Source: an uncultured Flavobacterium sp.
GTDB taxonomy: Bacteria > Bacteroidota > Bacteroidia > Flavobacteriales > Flavobacteriaceae
Reading direction: 5' to 3'
Assembly (NCBI GenBank): GCA_964643105.1
Contig: CAZXPF010000007.1
Span: 6,674-70,673, forward strand
DNA length: 64,000 nucleotides
Positions 1,285 through 43,311 of this stretch are shown here, piece after piece. Made by a program: the position numbers and the translations under genes. A model generated the notes under the pieces. That model was not told the DNA's origin. It saw nothing but the letters and a program-made list of their open reading frames with translations, and made no database searches. The stretch's first letter is position 1; every line of letters starts with the position of its first letter.

Positions 1285-4221
1285 CTATTCTTCTTTTTTG
1301 AATTGAGCCATTTTTAGTTTTTCTTTCTCACTCATTGAATCTCTCATAATAGGAGTTGCAACAAAAAGAGATGAATATGTACCCACTAAGATACCCACTA
1401 AAATAGCGAATACGAATCCTCTAATGGTTTCACCACCTAAAATGAATATTGCTACTAATACCACTAATGTTGTAGCAGAAGTATTGATTGTTCTACTCAA
1501 AGTAGTGTTGATTGCTCTGTTTACCAAGCCATCAAAATCAGATGTTGAATTGTAATCTAAATACTCCCTAATACGGTCAAATACAATTACCGTATCATTT
1601 AACGAATATCCAATTACCGTTAAAATAGCTGCAATAAAAGCTTGGTCAATTTCCATATTGAATGGTAAAATTGTATAGAAGAAAGAGAAAATTCCCAATA
1701 CGATTATAACATCGTGTGCTACTGCAACAACAGCTCCTAATCCAAATTGCCATTTTCTAAAAGAAACCATCAAATAAAGGAACACAATTAATAAAGACCC
1801 AGAAACAGCCCAGATAGAATTTGTTTTAATATCTTTAGAAATGGTTCCAGACACTTTTGAAGATTGCATAATACCTATGTTTTTACCTTCATATGAAGTT
1901 ACAAACTTTTCATACGTTAAATCAGCAGGTAAATATTTCTTTAGTGTTTCAAATAATTTTTTATTTACATCTTTATCAACTCCTTCACCTTCTTCATCAA
2001 CTTTGTATTTAGTTGTGATTTTTAACTGGTTGTCGTTTCCAAATACTTTAGCTTCTGCACTTCCGAAAGTAGCTACTAAGTCTTTAGCTACTTCAGGAGC
2101 ACTAACCGCTTTATCAAAACGTACTTGATAAGTTCTACCTCCAACAAAATCAGTTCCTAAGTTCAATCCTTTAGTAAAGATAGAAAACAAACTAAATCCA
2201 ACTAGAATTGCCGAAATTACGTAAGCAATTTTTCTTTTTCCTAAGAAATCAAAGTTTAAGTTTTTAAACCAATTCTTAGTAACGTTTGTAGAAAAAGCCA
2301 ATTTTTCACCTCTAGAAACACTCCAATCTAAGAATATTCTTGTAACAAATATTGCCGTAAATAAAGAAGTTAAAATACCTATTAATAAAGTAGTAGCAAA
2401 ACCTTTAATTGGTCCTGTTCCTAAGAAAAATAAAATCAAAGCTGTGATAAAAGTTGTTACGTTCGCATCCACGATAGATGACATTGCTCCTTTCCAAGTA
2501 TATGAATAATTTACAGCATCTTCTGTAGTTTTACCTGAATCCAATTCTTCTTTAGCTCTCTCAAAGATAATTACGTTAGCATCTACTGCCATACCAATGG
2601 TCAAAACAATACCCGCAATACCTGGTAATGTTAAAACAGCTCCAAAACTTGCTAAAACACCAAAGATGAATAAGATATTTACCAACAAAGCTAAGTTAGC
2701 ATAAAAACCAGTTTTTCCATAATAAACTATCATCCATAAAAGCACTAAAGAAAATCCTATGATAAAAGATATCATACCACTTTGAATAGCTTCTTTTCCT
2801 AAAGATGGTCCAACTACATCAGATTGTAAAATTTCAGCTCTAGCAGGTAATTTACCAGCTCTTAAAACGTTAGCTAAATCCTTAGTTTCTTCAATGGTAA
2901 ATGAACCAGAGATTTCAGAACTTCCACCAGAGATGGCTCCTTTAGAAACACCTGGAGCTGAATAAACTGTATTATCTAAAGTGATTGCAATGGCATTTCC
3001 TTTCTGAGAAACTTCACCTGTCATTTTTTCCCAAGCTTTTGCTCCTGAACCGTTCATTTGCATACTAACTGCAGGTTTTCCTAAAGCATCATAAGTGTCT
3101 GTTGCATTGGTAATAACTCCACCGCTAATTGGTGCTACATTTTCTCTATTCCCTTTTAAAGCATATAATTCGGTAATATCTGGTGTTTTATCATTTACTT
3201 TTCCCCATGCAAACTTAACATCTGTTAATGCACTAGGTAATAAAGCTTTAATATCGCTTCTTTTAAAATAAGCATTAATTTTTGCTGTATCTGAAAGTTT
3301 TGCAAAGCCAATTACAGAAGTTCCTGGCTGTTGGTTAACTTGAATTTTCTCGAATAATGGATTGAACTGTGTTGCTGTTGTATCTGCTTTATCAACCAAC
3401 AACGAATCGATTCCTTTAGAAACTGTTTCTTTAGTATCTTTTTGTTTAATTTCTGTTTTCTTTAAAGCTTCATTTACAGAAATTAAATATTGAGCCACCT
3501 CGTCAATTTTGTAGGTTTCCCAAAATTCTAACTGAGCTGTTCCTTGCAATAATTTTTTGATACGATCTACATCTTTTGCACCAGGTAATTCCACTAAAAT
3601 TCTACCTGTTTCTCCTAACATTTGAATGTTTGGTTGGGTTACACCAAACTGGTCGATACGTTTTCTTAATACTTCAAAAGCACTTTCAACTGATTTTGCA
3701 ACTTCTTGTTTGATTAATGGCTTAACTTGATCGTTAGTCATATCAAATTTAATTACATCATCTAATGCTCTTGTTCCAAAAATTTCTGGACTAGATAATT
3801 TTGTTTTTGAAGCAGCCGCTTCTTTGTCAAATGTTTCAAAGAAAGCATCTAAAAATGTTTGATTTCCTTTTTGATTTTGAGCTGTTTCGGCCAAAGCTTT
3901 ATTAAAAACTGGATTTTTAGTATTGTTCGCTAAACCTTTCAAGATATCTTTCACAGATATTTGAAGAATAACATTTATACCTCCCTCTAAATCTAATCCT
4001 TTGTTGATTTGCTTTGCAACTACTTCATTGTAAGTGTTTCCTAAGTACACTTTTTCTTTACCTATTGAATCTAGGTATTTTTGCTCTTTAGCGAAATCTC
4101 CTTTTGCAAAAGCCTTTGCTTTTTCTGCATAACTATTGGCTACGTATGTAAACGTTAATTGATAGATACACGCAACAGCAAAAATTATTGCGAAAAATTT
4201 AATAAGTCCTTTATTCTGCAT
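1285..4221 (-). CDS. secDF: Protein translocase subunit SecDF (fused SecD-SecF)
   Basis: 978 aa. N-terminal TM, large periplasmic domain (GLDLEGG motif), then two 6-TM SecD/SecF bundles. The fused form is typical of Bacteroidota. Confidence 0.93.
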   Translation of the reverse strand: MQNKGLIKFFAIIFAVACIYQLTFTYVANSYAEKAKAFAKGDFAKEQKYLDSIGKEKVYLGNTYNEVVAKQINKGLDLEGGINVILQISVKDILKGLANNTKNPVFNKALAETAQNQKGNQTFLDAFFETFDKEAAASKTKLSSPEIFGTRALDDVIKFDMTNDQVKPLIKQEVAKSVESAFEVLRKRIDQFGVTQPNIQMLGETGRILVELPGAKDVDRIKKLLQGTAQLEFWETYKIDEVAQYLISVNEALKKTEIKQKDTKETVSKGIDSLLVDKADTTATQFNPLFEKIQVNQQPGTSVIGFAKLSDTAKINAYFKRSDIKALLPSALTDVKFAWGKVNDKTPDITELYALKGNRENVAPISGGVITNATDTYDALGKPAVSMQMNGSGAKAWEKMTGEVSQKGNAIAITLDNTVYSAPGVSKGAISGGSSEISGSFTIEETKDLANVLRAGKLPARAEILQSDVVGPSLGKEAIQSGMISFIIGFSLVLLWMIVYYGKTGFYANLALLVNILFIFGVLASFGAVLTLPGIAGIVLTIGMAVDANVIIFERAKEELDSGKTTEDAVNYSYTWKGAMSSIVDANVTTFITALILFFLGTGPIKGFATTLLIGILTSLFTAIFVTRIFLDWSVSRGEKLAFSTNVTKNWFKNLNFDFLGKRKIAYVISAILVGFSLFSIFTKGLNLGTDFVGGRTYQVRFDKAVSAPEVAKDLVATFGSAEAKVFGNDNQLKITTKYKVDEEGEGVDKDVNKKLFETLKKYLPADLTYEKFVTSYEGKNIGIMQSSKVSGTISKDIKTNSIWAVSGSLLIVFLYLMVSFRKWQFGLGAVVAVAHDVIIVLGIFSFFYTILPFNMEIDQAFIAAILTVIGYSLNDTVIVFDRIREYLDYNSTSDFDGLVNRAINTTLSRTINTSATTLVVLVAIFILGGETIRGFVFAILVGILVGTYSSLFVATPIMRDSMSEKEKLKMAQFKKEE

Positions 4222-4258
4222 TATTCAAAAAATTAATTATTGTATTTTAAAAAACGGA

Positions 4259-4289
4259 CAAATATATAATATACAATAGGATTAAACAA
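4259..4289 (-). promoter_or_regulatory. Candidate Bacteroidota-type promoter of secDF (-7 TATATTTG, -33 TTG)
   Basis: The minus strand reads TATATTTG at 4266-4259 (TAnnTTTG consensus) and TTG at 4289-4287 with a 20-nt spacer, about 38 nt upstream of the ATG at 4221. Confidence 0.3.
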
Positions 4290-4361
4290 TTTTATTTTGT
4301 ACTAATGTTAAAATATTAGTATTCTAAAATAAGAATTTAGAAAAACAGGTAAAAACAAAAA

Positions 4362-4384
4362 AGGCTGTTAAAAAATAACAGCCT
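4362..4384 (-). terminator. Intrinsic terminator after mdh
   Basis: aggctgtta (4362-4370) pairs with taacagcct (4376-4384), 5-nt loop, U-rich tail on the minus-sense transcript. Confidence 0.65.
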
Positions 4385-4406
4385 GATTTATATCTATTTA
4401 TAAAAA

Positions 4407-5339
4407 CTACAATACTGCTTTCAAATCAGCATTCATATTTCTAACTGCATCTGCACTTTTTGCAAACAACGTTTTTTCAGCGTCATTTAATTGTACATCA
4501 ACGATTTCTTCGATACCATTTCTTCCAATAATACATGGTACACCGATACAAATATCACTTTGACCATATTCTCCCTCTAACATCACTGAACAAGGAATCA
4601 TACGTTTTTGATCATTTAGTATTGAATCTACTAAGAAAGCTACAGAAGCGCCCGGAGCATACCAAGCTGAAGTTCCTAACAAACCTGTTAATGTTGCACC
4701 ACCAACCATTGTTGAAGCCGCTACTTTATCCATTTCTTCTTGTGATAAGAAATTAGCCACTGGCGAACCATTGTAAGAAGCTAATCTTGTCAATGGAATC
4801 ATAGTTGTATCACCGTGACCACCAATTACCATTCCTTGCACATCATTTGATGGTTTTTGCAACGCTTGTGATAAATAATATTTGAAACGAGAACTATCTA
4901 AAGCTCCTCCCATTCCAATTACTCTATTTTTTGGTAAACCAGTTGCTTTTAAGGTTAAATAAGTCATTGTATCCATAGGGTTAGATACTACAACAATAAT
5001 TGCATCTGGAGAATGTTGTAAGATATTTTCTGCTACTGATTTTACAATTCCAGCATTGATTCCAATTAATTCTTCACGAGTCATTCCTGGTTTTCTTGGA
5101 ATTCCTGAAGTAATTACTACTACATCAGATTTAGCTGTTTTTGAATAATCATTTGTACTTCCAGAAACTACTGTATTGAAACCTGTTGTGGTTGCACATT
5201 GCATGATATCCATTGCTTTTCCTTCTGCAAAACCTTCTTTGATGTCTAATAAAACTACTTCGCTTGCAATTCCTCTGTAAGAAATAACATCTGCACATGT
5301 AGCACCTACATTACCAGCACCTACTATTGTAACTTTCAT
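4407..5339 (-). CDS. mdh: Malate dehydrogenase (LDH-like MDH)
   Basis: 310 aa. Rossmann motif KVTIVGAGNVGA, GGHGDTMIP motif, full-length LDH/MDH-family layout. Confidence 0.9.
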   Translation of the reverse strand: MKVTIVGAGNVGATCADVISYRGIASEVVLLDIKEGFAEGKAMDIMQCATTTGFNTVVSGSTNDYSKTAKSDVVVITSGIPRKPGMTREELIGINAGIVKSVAENILQHSPDAIIVVVSNPMDTMTYLTLKATGLPKNRVIGMGGALDSSRFKYYLSQALQKPSNDVQGMVIGGHGDTTMIPLTRLASYNGSPVANFLSQEEMDKVAASTMVGGATLTGLLGTSAWYAPGASVAFLVDSILNDQKRMIPCSVMLEGEYGQSDICIGVPCIIGRNGIEEIVDVQLNDAEKTLFAKSADAVRNMNADLKAVL

Positions 5340-5366
5340 ATTTGTATTATTTATATAATTATTAAA

Positions 5367-6371
5367 TTAAAATTCGTATTGTAATGAAACATTTGTGTTT
5401 ACAAATTTACCAAAAGCAAGCGTACCTTGTACAAAAAATTTGCTAAATTGATATCTACCTGAAAATTCTCCTATTAAATTTCTTTTGGTTTTACTCAAAA
5501 CTTTCATTCTTTCATTTAAAATATCTTGCAATGGAACTATTTCTTCGATGCTACCCTTTTCGCCATCAAATTTATACTCAAAATCACTTATATTGAAGAT
5601 AACTCCCCAAAGTACTTCTAAATTTTTATGGGTTTTAGAAATATTAATTTGTGTCTGATAGGTATTAATGCTACTTCCCAATGAATTAATTCCTAATGAC
5701 CCAAAATCGGACTGAATATCCGCAAAATCGAAACTCAAATCTTCTTTTGAATAGGCTAATAATGCAGAAACATGAATGGTTTTATTGAAATTTTCAGAAA
5801 AATATTGATCTAAATTATGCTTTAAACCTGCTCCATAGACTTGGTAATCTCCTTTTTTTAACTTTGTCTTTGGTGAAAACTTTACCAATAGTTCTGTTCC
5901 ATACCAAAGTCCGACTCCAGCTTGCAGATAAGGATAAAAAACCGTTTCTTCATTAATTCCTTCAGGGGATTTTAATCGAACTTGTGAACCGCCTAAATCA
6001 CCAACTAAATTATATTGGTCATTATTCCCCAAAGCTGTTGGTACTTGAACGCTATTTTGTCCTTCAATGGAAAAAAACTCAAAATTTGAATTACTAGCTA
6101 TAAATGTCCTATCTGATTTTGGAACAAAAAACACATTGGCATTGACTCCGAAAGTAACTTCTCCTAATTGCTTCTTTTTTGCAGAAGTCATCCATCCTGA
6201 TGAAGCTTGATAAACTGCTGCATCGGTAGCTGGTGTTATGTATTTATCTGAATACAAAAGGGCATCATTAAGTAGATACCCTATTTGTTGAAACACCTCT
6301 GTATTTTGAGCTTTAATTTGATTCGAAATGAATACTAAAAAAAATAATACAATTTTGCTGCTTTTATTCAT
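5367..6371 (-). CDS. Secreted / outer-membrane beta-barrel-like protein, function unknown
   Basis: I start it at the internal ATG (6371), which gives MNKSSKIVLFFLVFISNQIKAQ as a signal peptide. The longer ORF-track start would overlap gyrB. C-terminal ...LQYEF is barrel-like. Confidence 0.55.
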   Translation of the reverse strand: MNKSSKIVLFFLVFISNQIKAQNTEVFQQIGYLLNDALLYSDKYITPATDAAVYQASSGWMTSAKKKQLGEVTFGVNANVFFVPKSDRTFIASNSNFEFFSIEGQNSVQVPTALGNNDQYNLVGDLGGSQVRLKSPEGINEETVFYPYLQAGVGLWYGTELLVKFSPKTKLKKGDYQVYGAGLKHNLDQYFSENFNKTIHVSALLAYSKEDLSFDFADIQSDFGSLGINSLGSSINTYQTQINISKTHKNLEVLWGVIFNISDFEYKFDGEKGSIEEIVPLQDILNERMKVLSKTKRNLIGEFSGRYQFSKFFVQGTLAFGKFVNTNVSLQYEF

Positions 6372-6372
6372 C

Positions 6373-8316
<1,944 letters not shown>

Positions 8317-8491: not shown

Positions 8492-10204
8492 CTAAATCAA
8501 TTCTTCTATAGTTTTAGACTTTACATAAGCATCATCATGAACATTAGCCACTGCTCTTCCTGATGGATCATTCATGTTTTTGAAAGCCTCATCCCATTCT
8601 AATGCTATTTTGGTACTACAAGCCACACTAGCTTCTTGTGGTACGCTCAATGCTGCTGCATCACTTGGAAAATGTTCTGTAAAGATCGAGCGATAATAGT
8701 ATTCTTCTTTTGAGGTTGGTGTTTGAATCGGAAATTTGTATTTGGCATTAGCTAATTGTTCATCCGAAACTTCTTTGGCTACAATTTCTTTTAGGGTATC
8801 AATCCAGCTATATCCTACGCCATCACTAAATTGTTCTTTTTGTCGCCAAGCTACACTTTCTGGCAGCATATCTTCAAAAGCTTTTCGAAGAACCCATTTT
8901 TCCATGCGTTCGCCATTTATCATTTTATCTTGTGGATTGATTCGCATGGCTATATCCATAAATTCTTTATCTAAAAACGGTACACGCCCTTCAATTCCCC
9001 AAGCAGCTAAACTTTTGTTGGCTCTTAAGCAATCATACATGTGCAATTTGCTTAATTTACGAACGGTTTCTTCATGAAATTCTCGTGCATTTGGTGCTTT
9101 GTGAAAATATAGATATCCACCAAATAACTCATCTGAACCTTCACCCGAAAGCACCATTTTGATTCCCATAGATTTAATCACTCTTGCCATTAAATACATT
9201 GGCGTTGAAGCTCTAATGGTAGTTACATCATAGGTTTCAATATTATAAATAACATCTCTAATGGCATCCAAGCCTTCTTGAATAGTGAATTTAATTTCGT
9301 GATGGATGGTTCCTAGATGGTTTGCTACTTTTTGAGCTGCCGCTAAATCTGGTGAACCTTCTAATCCTACTGCAAATGAATGCAATTGTGGATACCATGC
9401 TTCTGATTTACTGTCTGACTCAATTCGCTTTTGAGCGTATTTTTTAGCTATAGCAGAAGTAATTGATGAATCTAATCCACCTGAGAGTAAAACTCCGTAA
9501 GGCACGTCACTCATTAATTGTCTTTTTACAGCAGCTTCTAAAGCTGTTTTTATGGCAATAATGCTTGTTTCATTTTCTTTAACAGCATCAAATTCTGTCC
9601 ATTCTCTTTTGTACCATTGCACAAATTCTCCATCTTTACTAGACATGTAATGTCCTGGTGGGAAAAGTTCAATTTTAGTACAATAGCCTTCCAAAGCTTT
9701 TAATTCTGAAGCTACATAAAATGTTCCGTGTTGATCCCATCCTATGTACAATGGGATAATTCCCATATGATCGCGTGCTATGAAATATTCGTCTTTAGTT
9801 ACATCATAGATTACAAATCCAAAAATTCCGTTCATTTCGTCTAAAAAATGTACTCCTTTTTCTTGGTATAAAGCTAAAATGACTTCACAATCGCTTTCTG
9901 TTTGAAATTCGAACTTCGACAGGCTCTGTAAGCTACCATCAAATTGTTTTCTCAGCTCTCTATGGTTATATATTTCTCCATTTGCCGCTAACACTAAACT
10001 TTTATCTTTGGTAAATAAGGGTTGTTTTCCTGAAGCTGGATCAACAATTGCCAAACGTTCATGAGCCAATATGGCTTTTTCATTGCTATAAATTCCGCTC
10101 CAATCGGGTCCACGATGACGAATAATTTTAGCCATTTCTAAAACTTGTGGTCTTAACGTTTCAGCTTTTTGCTTTAGATCGAAGGCACATACTATCCCGC
10201 ACAT
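8492..10204 (-). CDS. asnB: Asparagine synthase B (glutamine-hydrolysing)
   Basis: 570 aa. N-terminal MCGI (Ntn Cys2) and the SGGLDSS PP-loop. Confidence 0.92.
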   Translation of the reverse strand: MCGIVCAFDLKQKAETLRPQVLEMAKIIRHRGPDWSGIYSNEKAILAHERLAIVDPASGKQPLFTKDKSLVLAANGEIYNHRELRKQFDGSLQSLSKFEFQTESDCEVILALYQEKGVHFLDEMNGIFGFVIYDVTKDEYFIARDHMGIIPLYIGWDQHGTFYVASELKALEGYCTKIELFPPGHYMSSKDGEFVQWYKREWTEFDAVKENETSIIAIKTALEAAVKRQLMSDVPYGVLLSGGLDSSITSAIAKKYAQKRIESDSKSEAWYPQLHSFAVGLEGSPDLAAAQKVANHLGTIHHEIKFTIQEGLDAIRDVIYNIETYDVTTIRASTPMYLMARVIKSMGIKMVLSGEGSDELFGGYLYFHKAPNAREFHEETVRKLSKLHMYDCLRANKSLAAWGIEGRVPFLDKEFMDIAMRINPQDKMINGERMEKWVLRKAFEDMLPESVAWRQKEQFSDGVGYSWIDTLKEIVAKEVSDEQLANAKYKFPIQTPTSKEEYYYRSIFTEHFPSDAAALSVPQEASVACSTKIALEWDEAFKNMNDPSGRAVANVHDDAYVKSKTIEELI

Positions 10205-38358: not shown

Positions 38359-39645
38359 ATGAAAAAATACATATTTATACTACTACTAACTACTGTTGCT
38401 TTTGGTCAGCAAACTCCTGCAGCTAAACAAACCAAAAGTATTTTAATTTTAGGTGGAAAAGCTCACATAGGAAATGGTACTATTATTGAAAATAGTCTAA
38501 TTTCAATTAATAACGGTAAAATTGAAGCCATTGGAGATGCTCGTGTCATGAAAGTTAGTAAACATGATATTACCCTAGATGCATCAGGAAAAGATATTTA
38601 TCCTGGATTTATAGCTCCTAATTCTACACTTGGATTAGTAGAAATAGATGCGGTCAAAGCTTCTGACGATGAAAGCGAAATGGGAGAAATGAACCCGCAC
38701 ATCAGAAGTATAATTGCCTATAATGCTGAATCTGGATTAGTGGAAGTAGCTCGTCCAAATGGTGTATTGCTAGCACAAATTACGCCAAGAGGAGGAAGAA
38801 TTTCAGGTACTTCATCTGTAGTGCAATTAGATGCATGGAATTGGGAAGATGCTATCGTTAAAGAAAATGATGGCATTCACTTGAATTGGCCTAGAAGTTA
38901 TTCAAGGTCAGGATGGTGGGCAGAACCAGGAAGTATTGAGCCTAACAAAGATTACGACAAACAAATCACAGAAATTCAAAACTTTTACAACAATGCTAAA
39001 GCTTATGCAGCTTCAAATGTAACCGTAAAAGATATTCCGTATGAGGCCATGAAAGGTTTAGAATCTGGTGAAAAACAACTTTATATTCATGCCAATGGCG
39101 AAAAAGAAATTGTTGATGCCATTTTGTTCAAAAAGAAAAATAACATCAAAAAAATGACTATTGTAGGTGGATATTATGCTTATAAAAATACAGCTTTGCT
39201 TATCGAAAATAATGTGGCTGTACTTTTAAGAAGAGTTCACGATTTACCTTTGCTTGAAGATGAAGATGTAAACTTACCTTTCAAAAACGCTAAACTACTT
39301 TCAGACGCTGGAGTTTTAGTTGGCCTAGAAAACATGGGTGATATGGAAAGAATGCAAGTTAGAAACTTACCTTTTTATGCTGGAACTTGTGTGGCATGGG
39401 GAATGGAAAAAGAAAAAGCTTTGCAGCTAATCACTCTAAATTCTGCTAAAATATTAGGCATTGATGCTAATTACGGTTCATTAGAAACTGGAAAAAGTGC
39501 CACACTATTCATTTCAGATGGTGATGCTCTTGACATGAAAACTAATAAAATAACCACAGCTCTAATCGATGGAAGACAAATCAGTTTAGAAAGTCACCAA
39601 ACAGAATTATACGAGCGATATAAAGAGAAGTTTGAAAATAAATAA
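38359..39645 (+). CDS. Secreted amidohydrolase-family protein (HxH motif not conserved)
   Basis: 428 aa with a signal peptide. ...GKDIYPGFIAPNSTLGL... sits where D-x-H-x-H is expected. The C-terminal ...GSLETGKSATLFISDGDALD is typical of the family. Confidence 0.7.
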   Translation: MKKYIFILLLTTVAFGQQTPAAKQTKSILILGGKAHIGNGTIIENSLISINNGKIEAIGDARVMKVSKHDITLDASGKDIYPGFIAPNSTLGLVEIDAVKASDDESEMGEMNPHIRSIIAYNAESGLVEVARPNGVLLAQITPRGGRISGTSSVVQLDAWNWEDAIVKENDGIHLNWPRSYSRSGWWAEPGSIEPNKDYDKQITEIQNFYNNAKAYAASNVTVKDIPYEAMKGLESGEKQLYIHANGEKEIVDAILFKKKNNIKKMTIVGGYYAYKNTALLIENNVAVLLRRVHDLPLLEDEDVNLPFKNAKLLSDAGVLVGLENMGDMERMQVRNLPFYAGTCVAWGMEKEKALQLITLNSAKILGIDANYGSLETGKSATLFISDGDALDMKTNKITTALIDGRQISLESHQTELYERYKEKFENK

Positions 39646-39646
39646 T
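39639..39646. repeat. Left copy of the 8-bp target-site duplication TAAATAAT
   Basis: Identical to 42419-42426. It contains the amidohydrolase stop codon (39643-39645). Confidence 0.85.
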
Positions 39647-39678
39647 GGTAACTATATACAAGTTTACACAAAAAAAAT
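39647..39678. repeat. Terminal inverted repeat (distal to the transposase)
   Basis: GGTAACTATATACAAGTTTACACAAAAAAAAT versus the reverse complement of 42387-42418, GGCAACTATATATAATTTTACACTAAATAAAT. Confidence 0.85.
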
Positions 39679-39679
39679 A

Positions 39680-40144
39680 TTATTTTTTATGGATATTTTT
39701 AAAAAAATCTTCTTTCGTTGTTTTGTCAGTTATTTTTACTAAATATTCAGTATTAATATAATACAAATATATAATTTCCTTATCATCGTTACTTTTAAAG
39801 TATATGTTAAAGTATATTGATATTATATCTACATTTTCTAAAACAGGATGAATAATATTTTCTCGATACATATATGATATTACATTATAAACAAATTCTT
39901 TAGAACTGTTTTCTAAAAAAATATGTGATTGAGCCATTTTTGAATATGATGCATCAATAAAAAAGACATTGTTAACTTCCATGCTATAACTTAATGTTTT
40001 TACGTCAAAAAATCTTTTTTCAGTATTTTTAAATTCATCTTTCAAAATATCTATAAGTAAATCTCTTGATAGTTGTTTATTGTAGTAAGTTTGAGTATAT
40101 GAAATACTTGTAGTAAATAACAAAATAAAAAGTATGTTTTTCAT
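39680..40144 (-). CDS. Small secreted hypothetical protein (IS passenger)
   Basis: 154 aa from the ATG at 40144 (MKNILFILLFTTSISYTQ signal peptide). Extremely AT-rich, with no motif I recognise. Confidence 0.45.
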   Translation of the reverse strand: MKNILFILLFTTSISYTQTYYNKQLSRDLLIDILKDEFKNTEKRFFDVKTLSYSMEVNNVFFIDASYSKMAQSHIFLENSSKEFVYNVISYMYRENIIHPVLENVDIISIYFNIYFKSNDDKEIIYLYYINTEYLVKITDKTTKEDFFKNIHKK

Positions 40145-40196
40145 AGGAATATTTTTAAAACTGACCATTCCCAAATCAGTATTTTTTAAAATGACA

Positions 40197-40347
40197 AGCG
40201 TGGGATTGTAGCTTTATCCGTCTTGAGGTTCTGACAAAACCCTACGCCAAGATAAAGTACACCCACGCCATTGCATGAGCATCGACTTATTATCTTGTGG
40301 CGTATTGTAATTGTCAGATTTCAAGACCACGATAATAGCTAACGCTA
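40197..40347. other. 151-nt G+C-enriched imperfect palindrome; candidate structured RNA or DNA hairpin element
   Basis: Nested helices: 40197-40201/40343-40347, 40209-40213/40338-40342, 40214-40218/40332-40336, 40220-40237/40311-40327, 40243-40255/40290-40304. An alternative helix is 40198-40218/40251-40268. About 43% G+C (65/151, hand count). Confidence 0.6.
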
Positions 40348-40400
40348 TATTTTATGATATTTTAGTTTGCTAATTTAGTAATTTTTGTTATTTGTTTTTA

Positions 40401-41423
40401 TTATTCTAAATCTAAATTAGTTTGTATAGAATCTTCTTTAGGATTAAATTTTAAAGCTTTACTTAATTTTTTATTAAATGAGCTTTGTTTTATTGGTTCT
40501 TCTTCGCTTTTGTCAATTTCTCTTTCAATTTCGTCGAAGTTTAATTCAATTTGCCCATTTGCTCTGTCAACCATTATGTTAAATCTTGTTTTAAACTCTG
40601 ACCAACTATGACATGAACTCATTATACCAATTACTTTATATATTTGAGCTGTTAAAGCTGGATGTCCAATATCAGGTGTTAAACTTTGAAAAAATCTTGC
40701 TGTATAATTACCAGCAGTACTTTTTGGTGTTTTTGTCTTAAGCTCCTCTAATACTCCTTTTGGAAGTTGATTATAAATTAACTCATTTGTCCATCTACCG
40801 ATAACACCCGGTTTATTGTTTATGCCTTTAACAGTATAATTCCATTTATTTAATCTGAAAATTTCAAAATAAAATGTATCAGGAAACATTTTTTGCCATT
40901 TCAAAAGCTCTTTACCTATATATGCTTCAAGAATAATTTGTAAAGCATCACTCTCTCTTTCGTATTGGTAACCAGTTGCCTCATCAACAAGGGCTATAAT
41001 ACTTGTTTTAAGAAAAGCTTTTACAAGAATTCTACTTTGTTCTCCAATATGAATTTGATTTGGTTTTAATATTCCTTTTCCTAAAGCATCACTAAATAAA
41101 AAAGCAACTTGCGGTAAAATTTCAGCTTTATAACCAATACTTTTATTTCCATTTAAATCTATAAAAAATACAGGTTTAGAATTCTCTAATAACTCCTCGT
41201 CAATTAAGGGTTTTATATTAGAAGCACTTAAAAAAATAGGTGTTTGGAATTCTTCATCATAAGCCCTACCTCCTTTAGCTTTACCTGTTCTTCCTAAAGC
41301 TTTTAAAAATCCTATTCTACTTAAAACTCTTTCCCCATTAGGTAAATTATAAGCCGTAATATCAAAACCATTAATATTTAAATCTCCTTGATGAGTTGCT
41401 TCTAACATTTCTTTCTTAGTCAT
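40401..41423 (-). CDS. P63C-domain protein (phage-type regulatory/DNA-binding family), IS passenger
   Basis: 340 aa. ...IIALVDEATGYQYERESDALQ..., ...FPDTFYFEIFRLNKWNY..., ...KPGVIGRWTNELIYNQLPKGVLEELK...AGNYTARFFQ match my memory of P63C-domain proteins. Its start overlaps the transposase stop by 8 nt. Confidence 0.65.
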   Translation of the reverse strand: MTKKEMLEATHQGDLNINGFDITAYNLPNGERVLSRIGFLKALGRTGKAKGGRAYDEEFQTPIFLSASNIKPLIDEELLENSKPVFFIDLNGNKSIGYKAEILPQVAFLFSDALGKGILKPNQIHIGEQSRILVKAFLKTSIIALVDEATGYQYERESDALQIILEAYIGKELLKWQKMFPDTFYFEIFRLNKWNYTVKGINNKPGVIGRWTNELIYNQLPKGVLEELKTKTPKSTAGNYTARFFQSLTPDIGHPALTAQIYKVIGIMSSCHSWSEFKTRFNIMVDRANGQIELNFDEIEREIDKSEEEPIKQSSFNKKLSKALKFNPKEDSIQTNLDLE

Positions 41424-42333
41424 TTATTAATTCTTTATAGGTTAAACGATTATTTGAGTTTGAAAGTAATAAGTTAAAACGCATTGCTTCCGTTGTATCT
41501 CTTGTGTTGTATCTAAAAACAAATTCATCAACATACATTTGTAAATGTTTTTTAGAAGTGAAATGATATATACCAAATATACCTCTTTTTAGCAAACTCC
41601 AAAAACCTTCAATAGTATTTGTGTGAACTCTACCATTTACATATTCGTTTTGATTATGTTTTACAATTGAATGGTCGTAAATTCTTGAAACTCCTTTATA
41701 TCCTAACCATTCATCTGTATATAATGAAGCACTTTGTTTAACGTTAGCAACGATTTCACGAGTTAAAGTAGTAGAACCTACATTTTTAACAACATTAGCG
41801 TTTAATTTACCGTTTCTTTCAACTGTTCCAACAACAGGAGTTTTGTCTTTTGCACTTCTACCTTGTGAAGCAATTGCTTTTTTATGATTGTGGCGGTTTT
41901 TGTTTTTACCACCTACATAAGTTTCATCCGCTTCAACTTCGTTATCTAATTCATTGTTATTTTCAATACCAAAACATTTTCTAATACGTTGTAACATAAA
42001 CCAAGCTGATTTTTGAGTAATGTTTAAATCACGACCTAATTGTAAAGATGAAATTCCTTTTTTGTGAGAAGTTACAATCCAAATAGCAAGAAACCATTTT
42101 TGTAATTCCATTTTGGTATTATCAAACATAGTTTCAGTTTTTACATTGAAGTATTTACCTGTATTTTTACATTTGTATTTATTACCTTTACAGTTATAAA
42201 CCTTTGATGAAGCATCAAAAGGACTTACTACGTTACCATTCCAACGCAAAGTTTCCAGATGGTCAATGCAAGTTTGCTCATCTGGAAACGCTTTTATTAA
42301 GTCTAAAATTGATTTGAAATCTTGATTTATCAT
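41416..42333 (-). CDS. IS1595-family (ISXO2-like) DDE transposase
   Basis: 305 aa. Catalytic residues in VEADETYVGG, LYTDEWLGY and HTNTIEGFWSLLKR (DDE plus K at +7). N-terminal ...CIDHLETLRW... region. Confidence 0.88.
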   Translation of the reverse strand: MINQDFKSILDLIKAFPDEQTCIDHLETLRWNGNVVSPFDASSKVYNCKGNKYKCKNTGKYFNVKTETMFDNTKMELQKWFLAIWIVTSHKKGISSLQLGRDLNITQKSAWFMLQRIRKCFGIENNNELDNEVEADETYVGGKNKNRHNHKKAIASQGRSAKDKTPVVGTVERNGKLNANVVKNVGSTTLTREIVANVKQSASLYTDEWLGYKGVSRIYDHSIVKHNQNEYVNGRVHTNTIEGFWSLLKRGIFGIYHFTSKKHLQMYVDEFVFRYNTRDTTEAMRFNLLLSNSNNRLTYKELIND

Positions 42334-42383
42334 TACCTTTGTTTTAATTACATTACAAAGATAAGAAGTTAATTACACTAAAC

Positions 42384-42391
42384 CAAATTTA
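42384..42391 (-). promoter_or_regulatory. Candidate -7 box (TAAATTTG) of the transposase operon, in the loop of a 10-bp palindrome
   Basis: The minus strand reads TAAATTTG (TAnnTTTG consensus) about 51 nt upstream of the ATG at 42333, flanked by ttacactaaa (42373-42382) / tttagtgtaa (42392-42401). Confidence 0.3.
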
Positions 42392-42418
42392 TTTAGTGTA
42401 AAATTATATATAGTTGCC
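42387..42418. repeat. Terminal inverted repeat (transposase-proximal)
   Basis: See the 39647-39678 entry; 27/32 identity in inverted orientation. Confidence 0.85.
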
Positions 42419-42426
42419 TAAATAAT
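42419..42426. repeat. Right copy of the 8-bp target-site duplication TAAATAAT
   Basis: Identical to 39639-39646 and immediately outside the terminal repeat. Confidence 0.85.
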
Positions 42427-42522
42427 TTAGATATTCGGATTTTCAGATTATAGCTTTTTAGATAAATACTACCTAACAATCTTTCCGAAAATCTAAAATC
42501 CGAAAATCTGAACATCTTAAAA

Positions 42523-43311
42523 ATGAAACAAATCACTTCTATTCAAAATCCATTCATAAAATCTTTAGTGCAATTGCAAGAAAAGGCAAAAGCACGCAAA
42601 CAAACCGGTACCTTTTTAATTGAAGGAAAACGAGAAATTGAATTAGCCATAAAAGGAAATTACGAAATAGAAACAATATTATTTCTACCCGAATTAATTT
42701 CTGAAAAACAAGTAAACAGTTTAACAATCAAACAGTTAAGCACCATAGAAATATCAAAAGAAGTCTATCAAAAGTTAGCTTATCGCGATACGACTGAAGG
42801 CATTTTAGCGATTGCCAACACCAAAAGTTTATCACTTTCCGATTTAAAATTACCAGAAAATCCATTAATTTTAGTTTTAGAATCTATTGAAAAACCCGGA
42901 AACATTGGAGCCATGCTTCGTACAGCTGATGCAGCCAATATCGATGCTGTAATTTTAGCCAACCCAAAAAGCGATTTATATAATCCTAATATTGTTCGCT
43001 CTAGTGTGGGCTGCTTATTTACCAATCAAATTGCTTCAGGAACAACCGAAGAAGTTATTGCATTCTTAAAAGAAAAAAACATCAATTTTTATAGCGCTAC
43101 ACTACAAAACTCAAACGAATATCATAAAGTGGACTACTCTACACCAACAGCTTTAGTGGTTGGAACAGAAGCCACAGGCTTAACCCAACTTTGGAGAGAT
43201 GAAAGCACTCAAAACATCATAATTCCTATGCAAGGTGAAATTGATTCTATGAATGTTTCTGTAGCAGCAGCTATTTTATTGTTTGAAGCTAAGAGGCAAC
43301 GAGGATTTTGA
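42523..43311 (+). CDS. TrmH/SpoU-family RNA 2'-O-methyltransferase
   Basis: 262 aa. SPOUT motifs ...LESIEKPGNIGAMLRTADAA..., LVVGTEATGL, IPMQGEIDSMNVSVAAAILLFE. Confidence 0.85.
   Translation: MKQITSIQNPFIKSLVQLQEKAKARKQTGTFLIEGKREIELAIKGNYEIETILFLPELISEKQVNSLTIKQLSTIEISKEVYQKLAYRDTTEGILAIANTKSLSLSDLKLPENPLILVLESIEKPGNIGAMLRTADAANIDAVILANPKSDLYNPNIVRSSVGCLFTNQIASGTTEEVIAFLKEKNINFYSATLQNSNEYHKVDYSTPTALVVGTEATGLTQLWRDESTQNIIIPMQGEIDSMNVSVAAAILLFEAKRQRGF

Follow-up and report, generated by a model that had tools for sequence, protein, structure and literature searches.

A covarying structured RNA of Bacteroidota mobile elements, represented by a hairpin within an IS1595-family cargo transposon

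Within a 64,000-nt stretch of DNA from an uncultured Flavobacterium sp. (contig CAZXPF010000007.1, positions 6,674–70,673 of the forward strand; hereafter the window), a segment of 151 nt at 40197–40347 forms an imperfect palindrome inside a transposon. As an initial description made from the letters alone (hereafter the sequence-only reading) had stated, it lies between the stop codon of a gene for a P63C-domain protein (40401) and the ATG of the next gene (40144). The same description had found no open reading frame (ORF) to explain the segment, and indeed none of at least 40 aa covers it. The question raised by this locus is what a long hairpin does between two genes of a mobile element, and whether it does so as RNA or as DNA. 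The hairpin is the window copy of a widespread, strongly covarying structured RNA of Bacteroidota mobile elements. As to its function, we think on balance that it serves in cis, as a promoter and structured 5′ leader for the cargo genes of such elements. Structured 5′ leaders on mobile DNA are known as a kind, but this family, with its architecture, seems to be new.

Fold and covariation of the RNA

The segment stands out from its surroundings by composition. Its G+C content is 43.0% (65/151, a recount that agrees with the earlier count by hand), compared with 27.6% for the surrounding insertion sequence (IS) and 30.8% for the whole window. The minus-strand RNA has a minimum free energy (MFE) of −62.3 kcal/mol (z −6.7) and the plus-strand RNA one of −51.3 kcal/mol (z −5.2), and for neither strand does any of 200 shuffled sequences fold as well. 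The long bulged hairpin of the sequence-only reading is therefore real, and the minus strand is the one that folds better. The parts of the predicted minus-strand structure, and the elements adjoining it, are as follows.

40194–40348, minus strand: RNA core, a 155-nt rod of stacked helices P1–P7 (covariance model R1, 178.9 bits, E 3e-46; MFE −62.3 kcal/mol)
40342–40346, minus strand: 5′ strand of P1, AGCGU, pairing with 40197–40201 (helix 93% paired across the family)
40319–40322, minus strand: conserved GAAA, 5′ side of an internal loop (almost invariant in alignments A2 and A7)
40259–40282, minus strand: apical hairpin, AUGCUCAUGC-AAUG-GCGUGGGUGU (helix of 10 bp, four of them G-U, capped by a 4-nt loop)
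40225–40228, minus strand: conserved CCUC, 3′ side of the internal loop (C-C-T columns invariant in alignment A2)
40202–40208, minus strand: J strand, CAAUCCC, unpaired in the rod and 5′ strand of a pseudoknot
40197–40201, minus strand: 3′ strand of P1, ACGCU, pairing with 40342–40346
40160–40180, minus strand: small downstream hairpin, ACUGA-UUUGGGAAUGG-UCAGU, whose loop GGGA (40169–40172) is complementary to UCCC of J
40370–40377, minus strand: degenerate Bacteroidetes −7 box, TAAATTAG, with one mismatch in TTTG (relatives carry TATATTTG at the matching place)

This structure keeps the inner helices of the sequence-only reading and corrects its two outermost helices, which were off by one base: AGCGT at 40197–40201 pairs with ACGCT at 40342–40346, and TAGCT at 40209–40213 pairs with AGCTA at 40337–40341. 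The apex had been taken as an open region of 34 nt, a view that does not hold for the minus strand, which makes the 10-bp apical helix there. Two positions that had been read as G-T pairs belong instead to an internal loop conserved across the family, in which AA lies opposite ACC in the RNA sense and stays unpaired. On the opposite strand this loop (40319–40322 with 40225–40228, where AA faces (A)CC) would give tandem G-U pairs. A family-wide A/C juxtaposition is unusual, and protonated A-C pairs or contact with a protein are possible explanations for it.

Homologues were collected by scanning metagenomes with a pattern for the apical stem, which yielded 61 loci. A covariance model built from seven sequences recognised 46 members at E <1e-7 among the window, a locus of Flavobacterium daemonense (L003) and these 61 metagenome loci. 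Each of the first 21 homologues, folded alone, adopts the same rod (21/21). In a covariance-model-based alignment of 37 distinct sequences (A7), pairing holds in 92% of the pair cells, and compensatory changes affect 41 of the 57 pairs (399 cells), although these pair counts are somewhat inflated because such an alignment is fitted to the structure. The covariation score of A7 is 0.534, compared with 0.05–0.07 when the partners are slid by 1–3 columns, and none of 500 shuffles reaches the observed value. Of 24 predicted pairs, 14 vary in a compensatory manner even in a plain MAFFT alignment. The arms drawn in the sequence-only reading thus do change together among homologues.

Primary sequence is conserved at several places, namely in a 5′ element (AGCGUUAGCU), a 3′ element (CCCACGCUU) and the apical stem (GCUCAYG...GCGUGGGC), the last of which has G-U pairs that are themselves conserved. 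Because most members were collected by the apical-stem pattern, the conservation of this stem is partly an ascertainment effect, and four unbiased sequences serve to test it. They come from loci that were fetched independently of the pattern, through a small protein encoded 3′ of the RNA in conjugative transposons. All nine of these loci contain the RNA (four distinct sequences), and in them the 3′ strand of the apical stem (GGCGUGGGCG) is invariant while the loop is variable. The nine loci (L075–L083), which belong to Sphingobacterium, Pedobacter, Elizabethkingia and Weeksellaceae, also share a constant gap of ~277 nt, at about positions 2223–2501, between the second HTH_17 gene and the gene for the ~90-aa orphan protein, and the RNA fills this gap in each. 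A short conserved hairpin at the 5′ end, AUAGC-GUUA-GCUAU, is longer in the conjugative-transposon type and competes with P1 and P2.

A further helix joins the rod to the sequence that follows it. The J strand, comprising the seven bases 5′ of the P1 3′ strand, is complementary to a second element, J′, which is either the loop of a small hairpin or a stretch 15–30 nt downstream. The two partners co-vary, occurring as CAAACCC/GGGUUU, GUCCC/GGGAC, AAGUUCC/GGAACUU, UAGUCC/GGACUA, GUUGCCU/AGGCAGC and UUAGCCU/AGGCUA. Complementarity of J to J′ scores 12.8 for self pairs versus 10.2 for cross pairs, a self value reached in none of 5000 permutations. In a plain MAFFT alignment of 14 sequences (A8), the J:J′ helix is 83.7% paired, compared with 21–64% when the strands are slid, and five of its seven pairs are compensatory. 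As this helix crosses P1, it constitutes a pseudoknot.

The sequence-only reading had proposed a switch between two mutually exclusive folds, in which 40198–40218 pairs with 40251–40268. The alternative pairing does exist as 7 + 7 complementary bases, but only the GCGTGGG/CCCACGC half recurs in homologues, and the CUUUAUC/GAUAAAG half is not conserved. Nor are the two folds comparable in energy: the best alternative structure is predicted at −49.5 kcal/mol, which is 12.8 kcal/mol worse than the rod at −62.3 kcal/mol, and a two-state switch is therefore unsupported by modelled thermodynamics alone. Directly 5′ of (A/G)CGC, most members have three pyrimidines, and C or U is almost always present at these positions, so that the 3′ tail can also pair with the invariant GCGUGGG. 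The conserved GCGUGGG/CCCACGC complementarity could reflect a switch that is driven by a factor or that operates co-transcriptionally.

Strand, promoter and downstream gene

The orientation of the element had been considered unresolved, and the family decides it. Leaving the apical stem aside, the helices contain 207 G-U pairs against 40 A-C juxtapositions, and the sense strand is more stable than its reverse complement in every homologue folded. A perfect Bacteroidetes −7 box, TAnnTTTG, is located 5′ of the core in 31 of 38 distinct loci, mostly 21–32 nt away, and is found within none of 37 cores on the sense strand. A scan for sigma-70 promoters, whose model represents the wrong promoter type, gave no more matches than in shuffles. 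On the 3′ side, an ORF of at least 60 aa on the same strand starts +34 to +55 past the core in 30 of 34 loci, a range that includes the window, where the ATG of the 154-aa ORF lies 49 nt past the core. No terminator-like site occurs within 90 nt 3′ of the core in any of 34 distinct loci. The G-U excess, the stability of the sense strand, the promoter box upstream and the ORF downstream without a terminator together fix the operon-sense orientation, which in the window is the minus strand. Moreover, the closely spaced same-strand ORF and the lack of terminator-like sites argue for a 5′ leader rather than a free-standing, terminated small RNA (sRNA). The core hence has the position expected of a leader, between a promoter box and a same-strand ORF with no terminator intervening, and its structure covaries.

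Promoter and leader also travel together. The window copy is 93–94% identical to its nearest relatives, L026 and L015, but this identity is confined to the interval between about −29 and +12 relative to the core, outside which the flanks are unrelated; the homology of the window with L026 begins at about the −7 box (40370–40377). This restriction of identity to the surroundings of the core marks promoter plus leader as a discrete module.

The unit common to the family consists of a Bacteroidetes-type promoter, a rod of ~155 nt, a pseudoknot between the tail and the small hairpin, and a start codon ~15–25 nt further on. We propose that on a minus-strand transcript the RNA forms the 5′ leader of the next gene, which in the window is the secreted-type ORF of 154 aa (39680–40144), and that this leader may control how stable the cargo mRNA is or how well it is translated. 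Conservation of stem and loop implies a binding partner, and a protein or other factor probably binds the invariant apical stem and the internal loop. Such binding would set whether the 3′ tail stays locked, by P1 and the pseudoknot, next to the start site. Translation initiation in Bacteroidota is independent of Shine-Dalgarno pairing. A further role of the rod may lie in protecting the mRNA at its 5′ end or in organising that end. Among the roles listed in the sequence-only reading, a regulatory RNA or an intercistronic element for stability or processing comes nearest to the evidence, in contrast to a role specific to the IS or to P63C, or an origin as a miniature inverted-repeat transposable element (MITE).

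If this proposal is correct, the element represents a new and widespread class of structured RNA in Flavobacteriia and Sphingobacteriia, of ~200 nt and composed of a rod, a pseudoknot and an invariant stem containing G-U pairs. It would amount to a portable promoter plus leader for whatever cargo follows, and would thereby help in studying the expression and control of foreign genes in Bacteroidota. Cargo modules of transposons and conjugative transposons, among them those of the clinically relevant Elizabethkingia and Chryseobacterium, could be recognised by the leader, which is also a candidate part for Bacteroidota expression tools.

Several points weigh against a cis-acting leader, in addition to the inflated pair counts of A7 and the partial ascertainment of the apical stem mentioned above. 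No close downstream ORF is present in 4 of the 34 loci. The predicted fold shows no apparent structure between −15 and −1 relative to the ATG, and hence gives no sign that the start site is directly occluded. In the window copy the pseudoknot has only 4 bp, and the presence of TAAATTAG at the homologous −7 place suggests that its promoter may be weak, so that this copy, with its mutated box and short pseudoknot, may be a weakened one; read-through into the window leader from the transposase and P63C genes is possible. The start and the 3′ end of the transcript, and any processing of it, are predicted. Finally, the downstream ORFs are functionally heterogeneous and share no coherent metabolic or transport function, and a metabolite riboswitch was rejected on this ground.

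Instead of acting as a leader, or besides doing so, the rod might be a stable non-coding RNA, perhaps cut from a 5′ untranslated region, that acts in trans by titrating a protein of the host or of the mobile element or by base-pairing with other RNAs through the invariant GCGUGGG. We judge this to be unlikely, though a serious competitor. The rod shape, the invariant stem with its G-U pairs and the conserved internal loop are like those of protein-binding RNAs, the module is conserved far beyond its flanks, the downstream genes are heterogeneous, and the three pyrimidines before (A/G)CGC in most members can pair with the invariant GGG. All of this would suit a trans-acting RNA, but the lack of a terminator-like site past the core (0/34 loci), the tight spacing to the next start codon and the extension of the pseudoknot into the region just 5′ of the ORF point to the leader.

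Mobile contexts and explanations at the DNA level

The module is carried on IS1595-family cargo transposons, on conjugative transposons resembling CTnDOT and on phage-like contigs, contexts that fit a mobile leader and that also bear on whether the hairpin works as DNA. In the window, the surrounding transposon has the following features.

39647–42418, no strand assigned: IS1595-family cargo transposon, 2772 bp (terminal inverted repeats and 8-bp target duplication)
39647–39685 and 42380–42418: terminal inverted repeats (TIRs), 39 nt, imperfect (inverted-repeat search)
39639–39646 and 42419–42426: target duplication TAAATAAT, 8 bp, perfect (direct reading of the sequence)
41416–42333, minus strand: IS1595-family DDE transposase gene (Pfam DDE_Tnp_IS1595, E 2.4e-42, and Zn_ribbon_IS1595)
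40401–41423, minus strand: P63C-domain protein gene (Pfam PF10546, E 3.6e-29)
39680–40144, minus strand: cargo ORF of 154 aa from the ATG at 40144 (signal-peptide-like N-terminal segment; no Pfam match)

The hairpin lies inside this transposon, since the TIRs and the identical flanking repeats TAAATAAT enclose the P63C gene, the hairpin and the 154-aa ORF. The transposon adjoins the stop codon of an amidohydrolase gene (38359–39645), and that stop falls within the duplicated target. Its transposase and P63C genes overlap by 8 nt (41416–41423), which suggests translational coupling. This gene pair is common in contigs of Bacteroidota, where 1435 P63C homologues were found at E <=1e-20.

Among nine genomic P63C loci, the sole hairpin homologue is that of F. 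daemonense (L003), whose P63C protein is 57% identical to that of the window. There the RNA lies inside a complete IS (2980–6779) with the target duplication TAATTAAT, and both elements possess the DDE_Tnp_IS1595 transposase, TIRs and an 8-bp duplication, which places them in the IS1595 family. The outer ends and the apical stem of the two hairpins are kept, and the inner stems differ by compensatory changes. In each, RNA and cargo are enclosed by inverted repeats and target duplications, but the cargo of L003 differs from that of the window and consists of a lipoprotein and a membrane protein. The two elements are diverged, and in both the RNA stands exactly between the conserved transposase-P63C backbone and the different cargo genes.

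An IS1595 transposase, a P63C gene or both are located 5′ of the RNA in the window, L003, L015, L026/L060, L041 and L055, and clustering of neighbouring ORFs finds the IS1595 transposase in six loci. Many members have neither gene nearby. In a group of conjugative transposons resembling CTnDOT, the RNA lies 3′ of genes for TraN (DUF4138), TraO and TraQ and of two HTH_17 genes, and is followed by genes for the ~90-aa small protein, a receiver-domain (REC) protein and PRTRC/ThiF proteins. Among the remaining neighbours are an IS4-type transposase and an integrase fragment. One locus (L071) also has a group II intron (Rfam D1-D4-2 and domain V/VI; 7992–8112 and 9804–9878) ~1.6 kb 3′ of the leader RNA. 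In the group of IS-type and 'free' members, the downstream ORFs are mostly unrelated to one another, and the majority encode orphans that begin with a signal peptide. Represented among their products are an outer-membrane beta-barrel protein, an S74 chaperone-domain protein and an HlyD-like N-terminus, and most have no Pfam match.

Such contexts raise the possibility that the element functions as single-stranded DNA, either as a promoter or priming hairpin of the Frpo type during transfer or transposition, or as a recombination hairpin of the attC type that captures cargo. We consider this improbable. Its occurrence in conjugative transposons, the exact border between backbone and variable cargo in the two IS1595 elements, and the discreteness of the module amid unrelated flanks would all be expected, and G-T wobble in DNA would bias the strand in the same way as G-U pairs in RNA. 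Against it stand the canonical double-strand promoter box upstream of the core in 31 of 38 loci, the occurrence of the element in a chromosomal, non-conjugative IS as well, and the downstream pseudoknot and fixed spacing to the ATG, which fit RNA. An Frpo-type promoter is disfavoured, as no TAnnTTTG lies inside the hairpin on the sense strand (0/37 cores). For attC, the motif RYYYAAC is found in none of 37 cores and GTTRRRY in one, the covariance model gives at most one match per locus with no arrays, and there is no tyrosine recombinase among the conserved neighbour clusters, in which the IS1595 transposase (six loci) is the sole conserved recombinase family. A retron msr-msd was rejected, as no reverse transcriptase is present among the Pfam-scanned neighbours or the neighbour clusters, a check that did not extend to the intron-encoded protein of L071, more than 1.5 kb away.

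A related notion is that the hairpin is a handle for acquiring or swapping cargo, a strand-specific folded site (in DNA or RNA) at the junction of backbone and cargo that would resemble attC but operate without an integron integrase. The points left standing for it are the 93–94% identity of the module between unrelated flanks, its exact placement between backbone and differing cargo in two diverged IS1595 elements, and the several unrelated transposases and the conjugative transposons that adjoin it; we regard this notion as highly improbable.

The sequence-only reading had further offered IS-specific structures in DNA, namely a nested MITE or a cruciform used by the transposase or the P63C protein. 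The position of the hairpin beside a P63C gene in an IS1595-family element, with IS1595 transposases upstream in six loci, would suit such a role, but it is largely refuted. In the closest relatives by P63C (78–79% identical; L010 and L012), the IS1595 elements end directly past the P63C gene, with a terminator and an inverted repeat, and contain no hairpin; the covariance model finds no match in 12 of 13 further P63C loci (L001–L013). These hairpin-free relatives rule out the RNA as a part of every element with IS1595 transposase and P63C, and indicate that the hairpin and its ORF are an extra module outside the basic IS. The many members with neither gene nearby, in conjugative transposons and other contexts, argue in the same direction. 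A MITE is contradicted by arms that covary over deep divergence, with compensatory changes along the whole stem and a strong G-U bias; the 64-kb window holds a single copy of the RNA (covariance-model scan). Direct repeats of the MITE type at the edges of the homology blocks are not obvious on reading, which was not a systematic search.

The remaining candidate, a divergent drum RNA (RF02958), is refuted for practical purposes: although a sub-threshold cmscan match is present on the minus strand at 40174–40296 (21.1 bits, E 0.075) and the string GGGUU..AACC.CAA matches, the score compares with a gathering threshold of 43, the string falls within a variable, covarying stem and is lacking in homologues, and there is no match in L003 and L029 at E <=10 or in L001–L009 at E <=1. 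Drum RNAs are described as followed by Rho-independent terminators (PMC5737381), which are therefore expected for a drum RNA and are seen in none of the 34 loci here.

Relation to known elements and neighbouring features

The family agrees with the drum, skipping-rope and DUF3800-I motifs (PMC5737381) in its strong covariation, highly conserved nucleotides, lack of a known function and a gene association that is not that of a riboswitch. Unlike the present RNA, those motifs end in Rho-independent terminators, are associated with one protein family and occur in either orientation (PMC5737381). The RNA described here has no terminator, lies at a fixed distance 5′ of variable same-strand ORFs, and gives no sequence or covariance-model match to them. 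That the hairpin matches no known RNA family, as the sequence-only reading had surmised, is borne out by Rfam 15 at the gathering threshold, where no family overlaps the window copy or the copies of 18 further member loci. No description of the element was found in the searchable literature, although catalogues of unnamed motifs were not compared sequence by sequence and may hold a prior listing. A transcriptome paper on Flavobacterium psychrophilum and a catalogue of structured RNAs of the human microbiome contain no identifiable match. Very weak matches to models of the Bacteroidetes sRNAs GibS and FopS (16 bits, E 5–8) occur on the plus strand at 40134–40191, opposite the start of the cargo ORF, and are almost certainly due to chance in AT-rich sequence.

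Phage 'morons' and 'putative mobile promoters' are self-contained units of promoter and gene on mobile DNA. The present family is like them in that a discrete promoter module precedes unrelated cargo, often for envelope or secreted proteins, in mobile elements. It differs in that the shared part goes beyond a promoter to a highly structured RNA of ~200 nt with a pseudoknot, which implies a function at the RNA level. Structured leaders that act on the transcription or translation machinery include the HK022 put RNA, the EAR antitermination element and the long mRNA leaders of Bacteroides. With these the family shares its position between promoter and first gene, its stem-loops and its independence from the function of the downstream gene, whereas no sequence or structural homology to them was detected, nor were terminators that a leader might override identified downstream.

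Frpo promoters and attC sites are also long, imperfect hairpins with strand-specific folding, located on mobile DNA next to variable genes, but the present element has a normal promoter upstream and none in the stem, attC cores in only 0 and 1 of 37 sequences for the two motifs, no conserved integrase nearby and no arrays. The window transposon and L003 correspond to IS1595 elements with passenger genes in their DDE_Tnp_IS1595 transposase and zinc ribbon, TIRs, 8-bp duplication and passengers. They depart from their closest IS1595 relatives in carrying the extra module of leader RNA and cargo past the P63C gene.

Named hosts of the RNA are Flavobacterium, Sphingobacterium, Pedobacter, Elizabethkingia and Weeksellaceae. 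Carriers include F. daemonense JCM 19455 for the IS type, and Elizabethkingia miricola, Chryseobacterium and Pedobacter chinensis for the conjugative-transposon type. Neither a BLAST comparison of the element with plasmid and phage collections nor a first viral scan with the exact apical pattern gave a match, and a relaxed pattern recovered a few members in viral contigs of IMG/VR. Partial matches of 26.6 bits in three contigs of ~51% G+C (L087, L095 and L051) cover model positions 35–117, corresponding to the upper two-thirds of the rod, and may represent a more distant or truncated relative outside the low-GC Bacteroidota.

Repeats are also present just past the right end of the window transposon, where tandem 15-nt repeats (TCCGAAAATCTAAAA and TCCGAAAATCTGAAC) occupy 42484–42513, 5′ of a gene for a SpoU-type methyltransferase (42523–43311). 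Inverted repeats of 18–26 nt lie in the same interval outside the transposon (42426–42516), which may be a regulatory region beside which the transposon inserted.

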